Source of the DNA: a bacterium
GTDB lineage: Bacteria > UBA8248
Reading direction: 5' to 3'
DNA length: 64,000 nucleotides
Assembly: GCA_965213685.1 (NCBI GenBank)
Contig: CBDBZY010000012.1
Location: 64,001 to 128,000, forward strand
In this document: positions 231 to 6,744 of the stretch, one piece after another
How positions within the stretch are numbered: position 1 is the first letter of the stretch
Layout of the letters: every line of letters starts with the position of its first letter
Made by a program: the position numbers and the translations under genes
Notes under the pieces: generated by a model
What the model saw: only the letters and a program-made list of their open reading frames with translations
Databases searched by the model: none
What the model was told of the DNA's origin: nothing

Positions 231-1787
231 GCCCGGCGTCGTTCGACCCCATCACGCTGGAAGTGCTTTGGCGAAGGCTCATCGGCGTAGTGGATGAGGC
301 GGCGGCCTCTCTGGTGCGCACCTCCTTCTCCACGCTGGTGCGCGAATCGAACGATTTTTCCTGCGTGCTCACCGATGATCAGGGCCACTCCCTCGTGCAG
401 TCCTCCGCCAGCATCGCCTCGTTCATCGGCACCCTGCCGATAACGGTTCGCCATTTTCTCCGGGCGTTTCCGCCCGAGACGCTCGCACCCGGCGACATCC
501 TGGTGACCAACGACATCTGGTACGGAACGGGTCACCTTCCCGATGTGAACATCGTCCAGCCGGTGTTTTACCGGGGGAAATGCGTCGGGTTTTCCGCCAG
601 CACGGCCCACCTGCCGGACATCGGCGGAAAAATTCGCTCCCCGGACCCCAGGGAAGTGTATGAAGAGGGGCTCCAGATTCCCATGATGAAGATGTACAGG
701 CGGGGCGAGCCCGACCGGACGCTCATCGATCTCATACGCTATAACGTGCGCGTGCCGCATCTGGTAATGGGCGACATCAACGCCCCAGATCACGGCGAAT
801 CGTCTGGCGGAAAAGCGCTTGACCGCTCTGCTGGAGGAATACGGCCTGGCGGATTTGCGCGCGCTGACAAGAGAGATTCAGGGCCGATCCGAAAAAGCGA
901 TGCGAGACGCCCTGCGTCGTCTGCCGGACGGGGAGTTCCGCTCCGAAGTCGAAACGGACGGCCTAGCGGCGCCCATTCGGGTGAAAGCGAGAATAGAGAA
1001 AACCGGGGATTCCCTGGTGATCGACTACGCCGGCTCATCGCCGCAAGTCGACCGCGCCGTGAACGTGGCCTACAACTACACGTATGCGTATTCGGTATAT
1101 CCCATCAAATGCGTCCTCTGCCCGGAGGTTCCCAACAATGAGGGGGTGCTTCCGGCCCGTTGAAGTGCGGACGGAGGAGGGGAGCATTCTGGATCCGCTT
1201 CGTCCCGCCGCGGGAGGGGGGCGGATGCTGGTGGGCCACTATCTGCCCGCGGCCGTTTTCGAGGCCCTCGCTCCCGTCATCCCGGAGCGGGTGCCCGCGG
1301 CGAGCGGCTCTCCGCTGTGGTGCGTGAACTACACGGGGCTGGACAAGCGGGGCGTCAGAACGGCGGGGCTCTTCTTTCAGAACGGGGGCACGGGCGCTAC
1401 CGCGCGCGGAGACGGCCGCGCCTGCCTGAGCTATCCCAGCAACGTCTCCCATACGCCGATCGAGGTGATCGAGCGCATCTCCCCGTTCACCCTGCTGGAG
1501 AAGACGATACTCCGGGATTCGGGCGGGGGCCGGCAAGTTTCGGGGCGGTTGCGGGCAGAGGATCGTCCTGCGGAACGATTCGCCGGCCCGCATCACGGTT
1601 TCGTTTATGGCCGAGCGCACGAAGTCGCCCGCACCGGGTCTGTTTGGCGGCGCTCCGGGTGCGCGGGGGCAGGTGCGCATCAACGACGCCGAGATCGACC
1701 CCCAAGGTCACCACCGAGATGGCACCGGGCGACCTCCTCACGCTCATCACGCCGGGCGGCGGAGGATACGGCGAGGCGGGGCGGTGA
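227..1787 (+). CDS. hyuB: Hydantoinase B/oxoprolinase family protein, split by four +1 homopolymer frameshifts (sequencing error or pseudogene)
   Basis: N-terminal DPITLEVLW..RTSFS..VRESNDFS, GHLPD and HLPDIGG motifs; C-terminal TPGGGGYG. Removing one base at each of C783-786, G1142-1146, G1525-1529 and C1699-1703 gives one continuous frame. Confidence 0.85.
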
Positions 1788-2236
1788 TGTCTTCGCTTGC
1801 CGAGGGGGAATGGCGCTTCATCCGGAATGCGCGCGTGGCGCGGCTGGCGACGGCCGACGGGAGGGGCGCGCCCCATCTCGTGCCCGTGGTGTTCGCCGTG
1901 GTGGACGGGAGAATATACGTTCCGGTGGACGGCAAGCCGAAGAGGAGGGTCGCGCGCCTGAAACGTCTCGAAAACATCCGGGAGAATGAAAATGTCTCGT
2001 TTCTGGTGGATCGCTATGCGGAGGATTGGGCGAACCTCGGGTTCGTGATGCTCTCGGGAAGCGCGGCTGTCATCCATGCCGAAACCGGGGACGCCTACGA
2101 AAGGGCGGCGGAGGCCCTGCGGGAGAAATACCCGCAATACCAGGGCGTCGCGCTCCATGAATGGATGATAGAAATCCGGCCGCTTCGCGCCGCCTCCTGG
2201 GGTGCGGTGCAGGCGGGGGAGCCTTCATCCACATGA
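1787..2236 (+). CDS. PPOX-class (pyridoxamine 5'-phosphate oxidase-like) probable F420-dependent oxidoreductase, Rv0121-like
   Basis: MSSLAEGEWRFIRNARVARLATADGRGAPHLVPVVFA..VDGKPK..LKRLENIREN..VDRYAEDW. ATG overlaps the hyuB stop (TGATG). Confidence 0.8.
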   Translation: MSSLAEGEWRFIRNARVARLATADGRGAPHLVPVVFAVVDGRIYVPVDGKPKRRVARLKRLENIRENENVSFLVDRYAEDWANLGFVMLSGSAAVIHAETGDAYERAAEALREKYPQYQGVALHEWMIEIRPLRAASWGAVQAGEPSST

Positions 2237-5229: not shown

Positions 5230-5308
5230 CGCCGGGCTTTGGGGATCGGAGGAGGCTCCGGGAAATCGTCTAACGAAAACAGGAGGTGCGGGATGGAGAC
5301 GCGGTCGA

Positions 5309-5314
5309 TATAAT
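5309..5314 (+). promoter_or_regulatory. Putative -10 box for the sulfurtransferase
   Basis: TATAAT 45 nt upstream of ATG 5360; GGAGGG RBS present; no clear -35. Confidence 0.4.
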
Positions 5315-5359
5315 GAGAGCACGCCCGCGGTTTTCTTGCCTGCTGGAGGGGACGGGAAT

Positions 5360-6205
5360 ATGACGAGAGACGACGGCTCCCCGCTTGTTTCGGCCGCGTG
5401 GCTTTTGGAGCGTCTGCAGGAGCCTGGCTTGCGGGTCATCGAGGTTTCCTCATCGAGCGATGACGCCTCCTACCGCGAGGGGCATGTTCCGGGAGCGCAC
5501 CGGTGGTTCTGGAAGGACGCCCTCTGGCACGAGACGGACCGCGCGTTCGCCGCGCCCGGGGAGATGGCGAAGCGGCTGGGGCGCGTCGGCGTCGGCCCGG
5601 ATGCGACCGTCGTCCTGTATGGCGACCCCGTGCAGTTCGGCACCTATGCGTTCTGGGCGCTCAGGATGGCGGGGTTCCGGAATTTGCGGCTCCTCGATGG
5701 CGCGAAAAAAAAGTGGATGGCCGACGGGATGCCCATCTCGCGGGAGACGCCGGAGCCCCGGGCGGTTCCCCACGCCGCTGCGGGCGCGGGGGAGACCCTG
5801 AGCGTGGGCAGGGATGAGGTGCGCGCGAAGCTGGGCCAGCCGGGCCGGGTACTGCTCGACGTGCGCTCGCCGGAGGAATTCCGGGGGGAGCGGGTGATGC
5901 CCCCTCCGGGTTTCGACCACGGCGCGGAGCGGGCGGGGCGCATACCGGGGGCGGTTCATCTGTTTTTCCGCGAGCTGCTGCATGCGGACGACACCTACAG
6001 ACGCCCTGAGGAGCTTCGGAGCATTCTGCGCGGAGCGGGAGCCCTTCCCGATGAAATCGAACTCGTCCTCTACTGACGCCTGAGCCACCGGGCCAGTCTG
6101 GTCTGGTTCGCCATGAAGTATTTGCTGGGCTACGAAAACGTGAAAATTTATGACGGCTCATGGACGGAGTGGGGGAGCATCGTCGGTTTTCCGATTGAAA
6201 GGTGA
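5360..6205 (+). CDS. Tandem-rhodanese sulfurtransferase (SseA/TST-like), probable selenoprotein with Sec at TGA 6074-6076
   Basis: YREGHVPGA, LLDVRSPEEFRG, GRIPGAVH, then VLY-TGA-RLSHRAS. The frame continues to the rhodanese signature YDGSWTEWG and the real stop at 6203-6205. Confidence 0.85.
6082..6109 (+). promoter_or_regulatory. Putative bacterial SECIS hairpin
   Basis: CCGGGCCA-GUC-UGGUCUGG stem-loop (6088-6106), with an alternative lower stem GAGCCA/UGGUUC. The G-containing loop starts 19 nt after UGA. Confidence 0.65.
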
Positions 6206-6258
6206 TGCGCGCCGCCGCGCGGGACGAATGCGGAAGCGCCTCACGGCGGAGAGTAAGA

Positions 6259-6291
6259 AAAACACCGCGGCCACGGGGGCCGCGGTGTTTT
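6259..6291. terminator. Bidirectional rho-independent terminator
   Basis: Perfect inverted repeat AAAACACCGCGGCC-acggg-GGCCGCGGTGTTTT between the convergent sulfurtransferase and ferredoxin genes. Confidence 0.8.
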
Positions 6292-6309
6292 CGGGTTCAG
6301 AAAACGGCG

Positions 6310-6621
6310 CTAGCGCAGCACGTTGCCGGGTTTTCTCGGCGGGTCGTTCGCCGGGCGCGGCTCCACCGGCTCGTTGTTCTTGAAGTCCGGTGCGAGCTCC
6401 TCGTTGATGGCCGCCCATACGGGATCGTCATCTTCGCTTTCCAGGATGGCGTCAATCGGGCACTCCGGCTGGCAAACGCCACAGTCGATGCACTCCTCGG
6501 GATCGATGATGAGAAAGGGCTCCCCCTTGTAATCGCCCGGGTGCATACAATCCACGGGACAGACGCTCACGCACGTCGCATAGCGCTCGCCCAAGCATTT
6601 CTCCCCGATGACAAATGTCAT
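6310..6621 (-). CDS. fdxA: Ferredoxin (7Fe, FdxA-type)
   Basis: MTFVIGEKCLGERYATCVSVCPVDC..IDPEECIDCGVCQPECPIDAI. Start at MTFVI behind a GGAGGG RBS. Confidence 0.85.
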   Translation of the reverse strand: MTFVIGEKCLGERYATCVSVCPVDCMHPGDYKGEPFLIIDPEECIDCGVCQPECPIDAILESEDDDPVWAAINEELAPDFKNNEPVEPRPANDPPRKPGNVLR

Positions 6622-6744
6622 GGATGATTCCCTCCTTCTGAAAATGAAGATTGTCGCCATTTGAATGCGCGAGAGGGCGGCCCCTGGCGATTCACGAATA
6701 TCCGACGCCGCGCCGGCTTCACCCGACGGTTGCAAACTCCACCC

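Follow-up and report, generated by a model that had tools for sequence, protein, structure and literature searches.

Rhodanese-type sulfurtransferases that carry selenocysteine (Sec) have been described on several occasions. A Sec 'rhodanese-related sulfurtransferase (COG2897)' was predicted from the Sargasso Sea in 2005 (PMC1088965), a 'Sulfurtransferase COG2897' was reported as a selenoprotein of the Olavius symbionts in 2007 (PMC1976440), and the GOS analysis of 2008 gave a Sec COG2897 sulfurtransferase plus a cd01449 form (PMC2398784). A 2026 review distinguishes five Sec rhodanese forms, of which form 4 is described as 'rhodanese-related sulfurtransferase, UxxG' (PMC13188914). An earlier note on the present DNA stated that Sec-containing rhodaneses had already been reported, and the descriptions in these four sources show it to be right. 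For MAGs of GTDB UBA8248 that go by Nitrospinota, Nitrospinaceae or Nitrospinae names, BSepDB in addition counts 48-54 selenoprotein genes and places these MAGs among the most selenoprotein-rich bacteria, a statement that concerns those MAGs only (PMC13326102).

The window analysed here is the whole 64,000-nucleotide stretch of a UBA8248 genome (assembly GCA_965213685.1, contig CBDBZY010000012.1, positions 64,001 to 128,000). The gene at 5360-6205 very probably encodes a tandem TST-like rhodanese, the catalytic residue 239 of which would be Sec, inserted by way of SelB and tRNA-Sec at UGA 6074-6076 (Table 1). The table-11 ORF closes at 6076, in the context ...ELVLY-TGA-RLSHRAS, and the read-through frame runs on for 42 sense codons, via YDGSWTEWG, to a second TGA; this ORF end, its context and the 42-codon continuation had been claimed in the earlier note and are all present. 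The start codon is the ATG at 5360, and an equivalent ATG opens all 21 orthologues (MT.. or MP..). The terminal stops of these 21 genes, the present one included, comprise 9 TGA, 6 TAA and 6 TAG. The terminator claimed after the second stop was recovered by folding, with an A-run before the stem, a 10-bp GC stem and a U-run after it; its fold reaches -27.8 kcal/mol (z -5.05), with 0 of 200 shuffles as good, and a consensus terminator scan missed it.

Table 1. Positions of the Sec-rhodanese gene and of the signals in and around it, numbered within the window.
Feature	Position	Strand	Basis or remark
Shine-Dalgarno-like GGAGG	5345..5349	+	10 nt before ATG; read from sequence
Complete CDS of the predicted Sec-rhodanese	5360..6205	+	281 residues, U at 239, plus terminal TGA; translation with TGA = U
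C-terminal catalytic rhodanese domain, residues 152-272	5813..6175	+	best Pfam stretch; contains the active-site loop
In-frame TGA, predicted Sec239 (codon 239)	6074..6076	+	replaces the catalytic Cys of the Y-C-R-L-S-H-R-A loop
42 codons 3' of the TGA (240-281), RLSHRAS...YDGSWTEWGSIVGFPIER	6077..6202	+	dropped by gene callers
Block of 30 nt without any substitution, codons 243-252	6086..6115	+	21 species
Putative SECIS hairpin, 9-bp stem, GUC loop at 6096-6098	6087..6107	+	MFE and centroid structures
True stop, TGA without SECIS	6203..6205	+	sequence and translation
Bidirectional intrinsic terminator	6257..6292	.	separates the rhodanese gene from the convergent ferredoxin gene (6310-6735, -)

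The read-through protein matches Pfam Rhodanese (PF00581) with an E-value of 7.8e-31 in two stretches, which points to tandem domains. In the N-terminal domain, alignment to PDB 1UAR places an Asp at the equivalent spot (VVLYGDPVQ), which we take to be the usual mark of an inactive first rhodanese domain. The best solved relative is 1UAR itself, the Thermus thermophilus rhodanese, with an E-value of 1.2e-63 over residues 8-280, followed by mycobacterial thiosulfate sulfurtransferases with E-values of 1e-54 to 1e-45. U239 aligns with the Cys of YCRIAERS in 1UAR, presumably the catalytic residue. The active-site loop has six residues (C-x5 type) and reads U-RLSHR-A, compared to C-RIAER-S in 1UAR and CRLSHRA in the Cys homologues. 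The Cys members of the subfamily share the motif YCRLSHRA(T/S) and are usually annotated as 'thiosulfate/3-mercaptopyruvate sulfurtransferase'. Against curated NCBIfam models, the protein scores 88.3 bits for NF008557 (SseA, 3-mercaptopyruvate sulfurtransferase equivalog; cut-off 250), 54.7 bits for NF040901 (ExtH selenite/tellurite-reduction rhodanese; cut-off 200) and 39.8 bits for NF041203 (rhodanese_LYCAU; cut-off 115). As all three scores lie below their cut-offs, we place it among tandem, TST-like rhodaneses outside the named subfamilies; the match to the TST type is judged from the cationic R/H/R loop and the best PDB matches.

A whole-genome DNA search covered 40 relatives, 22 of which are other genomes of the same genus. 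The rhodanese gene is found in 21 of these 22, and every copy has a single in-frame TGA; the copy of G003 lies across two contigs, the other 20 are unbroken, and the only same-genus genome without a match (G017) is 79% complete. The TGA sits at the identical column in 21/21 full same-genus genes, a count that overstates independence, since these genomes are kin. Nine genomes outside the genus have a match, all with no stop and with TGC or TGT at the catalytic column. The pairing of Cys and TGA codons that the earlier note proposed to look for in close homologues is thus found, with TGA in the genus and TGC/TGT in the homologues outside it. The closest relatives in a large protein database share 73-90% identity with the protein, have a length of 237-239 residues and stop at ...LY; those at 60-68% identity have about 278 residues and the motif YCRLSHRA.

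A further scan of genome_contigs, with one genome per species, yielded 80 loci, in 55 of which the C-terminal motif was located by motif search. The catalytic codon at these 55 loci is TGA in 15, TGC/TGT in 39 and a Tyr codon in one. All 15 TGA loci fall into one clade and, judged by their coordinates, come from genomes already in the same-genus set; those with labelled records are 'Nitrospinota bacterium' or 'uncultured Nitrospinaceae bacterium' MAGs. The Tyr locus (L071, from a Dehalococcoidia-labelled MAG) reads YYRLSHRA, with Tyr in place of the catalytic Cys, which points to an inactive variant or to an error.

The hairpin with an A-GUC-U apex that the earlier note placed just 3' of the TGA was found, and we consider it a putative SECIS for SelB. 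It begins 10-11 nt after the UGA, has an energy of -14.8 kcal/mol, and its stem is made of the strands ACCGGGCCA and UGGUCUGGU; a weaker lower helix lies beneath it (6081-6113). The hairpin sequence is identical in all 21 species, within the substitution-free block of Table 1. This run of 10 nucleotide-invariant codons is the longest in the gene, the next being 4, and 0 of 20000 shuffles of the column flags reach 10. Among degenerate codons with an invariant amino acid, 8/8 in the block are also nucleotide-invariant, versus 19/126 elsewhere (Fisher 1e-6, for species that are kin). Compared to shuffled sequences the energy of the hairpin is not exceptional (z -0.21 and -0.51), with 55-78 of 200 shuffles folding as well; as such an energy is ordinary for GC-rich sequence, the case was put on conservation instead. 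Since positions 6086-6115 never vary, no compensatory change is seen, and we infer the structure rather than prove it.

The stem alone is not diagnostic, because Cys homologues pair likewise: they often form 7-8 of the nine stem pairs, and two of the three that were folded give a stable hairpin. Seven of the nine pairs appear to be dictated by the codons of the peptide H-R-A-(T/S)-L-(V/A)-W, which would account for the pairing in Cys homologues, and the remaining two would hang on wobble bases. The Sec genes are set apart by 9/9 pairing together with an AGU serine codon that places G first in the loop. A GUC loop is present in 36/36 TGA rows, which stand for 21 genomes plus 15 rows that are the same genomes fetched twice, and a G-first loop in 1/45 Cys rows. 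The latter row (L055, a Chloroflexi-labelled MAG) has a catalytic TGC, an AGC serine, a GCC loop and 8/9 pairs, an arrangement close to a SECIS without the UGA.

In Escherichia coli fdhF, the SECIS consists of an 11-nt spacer after the UGA, a stem, and a small G-U loop contacted by SelB. The present element resembles it, with a three-nucleotide GUC loop instead of GGUC and no predicted bulged U. In the selD gene of the same genome, an 11-nt spacer separates the UGA from a 6-bp stem capped by a GGA loop, the same layout as that of the rhodanese element. An Rfam search of positions 5900-6400 returned four sub-threshold chance matches (E 1.5-3.4), all of them on the terminator, and none to a SECIS.

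The earlier note pointed to selA, selB, selC and selD as genes to be sought in the genome, and selA, selB, tRNA-Sec and selD were all found. selA scores 501.6 bits; the wing domain of selB scores 77.6 bits and lies on the contig of selA, 2.7 kb further on; a 97-nt tRNA-Sec with the anticodon tca is predicted; and selD is located on contig 31, with a UGA of its own in GGUGSK. SelD thus appears to be a selenoprotein itself (GG-U-GSKLG, with the UGA at 1961-1963 of L003, minus strand), and likewise in 21 of the 22 other same-genus genomes.

As deposited, selD (contig 31, about 900-2000 of L003, minus strand) is broken into at least five frameshifted pieces, and every indel relative to a relative's gene is an extra base in a run of G or C. 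In each of two public runs, X2 and X3, a 14,239-nt contig spans selD (depth 17 and 22, respectively; 0 other letters) and lacks 11 homopolymer bases at ten places in the gene; the low-depth contigs of run X1 break at the same ten places. With these 11 bases removed, selD has one frame and a single TGA, and the product is 84.5% identical to that of the relative over 322 residues. Because the X2 and X3 contigs restore one frame, we regard selD as intact and the assembly as containing homopolymer insertion errors; this rescue rests on Logan contigs of runs that are possibly the source samples.

In the window, a Hydantoinase_B/oxoprolinase gene is spread across two overlapping frames (2-1141 and 1084-1989, plus strand), one ORF covering profile positions 1-182 and the next 294-430, and is probably another assembly frameshift or a pseudogene. 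The genome amounts to 7.97 Mb in 71 contigs, the 22 same-genus genomes being 2.9-4.6 Mb, and ARAGORN predicts 252 tRNA genes in it. A simple doubling fails to explain this size, given that the genome has one copy each of the rhodanese gene and of selD. A GC3-based search of the window for further genes interrupted by TGA gave 21 candidates, all of which were discarded; the scan missed the rhodanese gene, which served as its positive control.

It is extremely unlikely that the TGA is a genuine stop, which would leave either a truncated rhodanese or a pseudogene minus its active-site loop, with the downstream frame as a relic. Gene callers do end the protein here (P0003 and the relatives of 237-239 aa), and TGA is the commonest ordinary stop of the genome, ending 1396 of 2455 open frames of at least 400 codons, from which it also follows that the genetic code is not reassigned. 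However, the 42 downstream codons are in frame in 21/21 species, and comparison of these 21 distinct genes (74-95% nucleotide identity) revealed that 33 of the 42 downstream columns are amino-acid invariant, with synonymous changes in 21 of the 33. Upstream, 113 of 236 columns are amino-acid invariant and 86 of the 113 have synonymous differences. Owing to this amino-acid invariance with synonymous variation, we read the 42 codons as translated; the pattern is evidently one of purifying selection and not that of a relic, which would not preserve the 30-nt invariant block either. A protein ending at residue 238 would, moreover, be without the catalytic loop and the domain end seen in 1UAR. The notion that TGC or TGT was turned into TGA by a mistake of sequencing or assembly is close to inconceivable: the assembly does hold errors, namely the 11 spurious selD bases and the split hydantoinase B gene, but the errors seen are homopolymer insertions, whereas the rhodanese TGA is a substitution-type difference. 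The identical TGA recurs in the assemblies of 20 other species, and all 97 sampled 31-mers of positions 5300-6300 are present in runs X1-X3, which may be the source samples and so not independent. Thus on the question whether reads show TGC or TGT, raised in the earlier note, the three public runs and the 20 other assemblies side with TGA. Among the runs listed for positions 5300-6300 none was of RNA, which has no bearing on expression; runs with a small share carried sponge or marine metagenome labels, which we do not take as a sign of habitat.

Very unlikely, too, is a UGA read by a near-cognate Trp or Cys tRNA or by a suppressor rather than as Sec, with a hairpin that merely slows termination. 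Stop-codon read-through stimulated by downstream structures does exist in bacteria, and Sec at residue 239 is here a prediction from sequence. Against it stand the catalytic Cys position, at which only Cys or Sec would preserve activity, the full Sec machinery of the genome, and a selD gene with the same layout of spacer, stem and G-first triloop.

The reading that we prefer is therefore Sec insertion at the rhodanese UGA, the putative recoding signals of which are well supported. We propose that UGA 6074-6076 would be decoded as Sec by the bacterial SelB/tRNA-Sec route, in which the 9-bp hairpin with its G-first triloop, 10-11 nt downstream and within the codons for H-R-A-S-L-V-W, would act as the SECIS and recruit SelB·GTP·Sec-tRNA(Sec) to the ribosome. 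The enzyme would then work as a Cys rhodanese does, by double displacement: an anionic donor (thiosulfate, for instance) would give up a sulfane sulfur to the selenolate, and the resulting enzyme Se-S intermediate would hand this sulfur on to a thiol or to cyanide. The chemistry, the sulfur donor and a possible role in selenium trafficking are suggested by analogy with the rhodanese family, and likewise we only infer SelB binding to the hairpin, selenium incorporation, the substrate and a kinetic gain from Sec.

The origin of the Sec form was followed in a midpoint-rooted tree, a quick maximum-likelihood one, built from 21 Sec and 33 Cys rows (54 in all) after X had been put at the Sec/Cys column as a mask. 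Left out were short or interrupted rows (L056, L074, L079, L080, L088), a partial one (L035), duplicates (L039-L052, L082), rows that gave no match to the active-site pattern (L071, L078), and seven CRIGERS-type loci (L084, L086, L087, L089-L092); L083 and L085 were kept as outgroup beside L037 and L038. The Sec genes group into a single clade (SH-aLRT 99) that branches from within Cys forms of Nitrospinota- and Chloroflexota-labelled MAGs. One change would thus explain the distribution, that is, a single Cys-to-Sec switch in one genus among the genomes searched. Within the genus, the gene order is amidase, rhodanese, convergent ferredoxin; in the 1.5-kb flanks of the same-genus loci L010-L029, an amidase gene is present at 19/20 and a ferredoxin gene at 13/20. 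This order gives no clue to function.

More speculatively, and with considerable doubt, the Sec form may have arisen once, recently and by a near-minimal path, the rhodanese loop having been pre-adapted to become a SECIS. If so, the path would have needed TGC to become TGA, two wobble pairs to be tuned, and an ACN or UCN codon to change to AGU, which puts G first in the loop. Were this true, the locus would serve as a natural model for the birth of a selenoprotein, and such pre-adaptation of the loop could account for the repeated appearance of Sec in rhodanese families. In a bolder variant, what the enzyme passes on towards SelD might be selenium (Se-Se or Se-S species) and not sulfur, in the lineages to which BSepDB assigns about 50 selenoprotein genes.

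Altogether, as read from sequence, this is a genuine selenoprotein gene, in support of the interpretation in the earlier note, and a further member of the Sec tandem rhodaneses catalogued since 2005. Since the predicted Sec codon is an in-frame TGA, gene callers truncate the enzyme, and in all species of the genus standard gene calling cuts it at residue 238; as these calls end at ...LY, the predicted proteomes lack the active site of a conserved sulfurtransferase. The gene offers a clean case of one Cys-to-Sec conversion shared across a genus, with a putative SECIS built into a strongly constrained coding stretch. It opens no new kind of system and would not surprise a specialist; its main value lies in annotation and in a tidy evolutionary example.

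Comparison with solved structures showed that 1UAR and the mycobacterial CysA/SseA proteins (PDB 3AAX, 3HWI and 3HZU) share the two-domain architecture of the present protein over residues 8-280 (E-values between 1e-63 and 1e-45). All of them retain the active-site loop and the YDGSWTEWG tail; however, the solved proteins have Cys in a CRI[AG]ERS loop, whereas the present protein has a predicted Sec in a URLSHRA loop. NF041203, the NCBI-curated 'rhodanese_LYCAU' model, also describes a rhodanese-domain selenoprotein family, but it is a single-domain model of 126 positions with a CxU motif, compared to the tandem protein described here, which at the score given above is not a member of it. Literature searches on Sec in thiosulfate sulfurtransferases and on selenoproteins of Nitrospinota or UBA8248 found no paper on this URLSHRA Sec form, which the tables of BSepDB may list. 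The published COG2897 and cd01449 Sec sulfurtransferases, as they are described, resemble the present protein in being tandem, SseA/TST-like predicted selenoproteins, in having widespread Cys homologues and in having a predicted SECIS just after the UGA. By the same descriptions, the present protein differs from them in belonging to a different subfamily and, in the genomes searched, to a single genus, whose related records carry Nitrospinota labels. Form 4 of the review is of the UxxG type, whereas the present protein reads U-R-L-S (URLSHRA), a comparison that holds at the level of description; the URLSHRA form possibly represents an origin of Sec independent of that of the published UxxG form.
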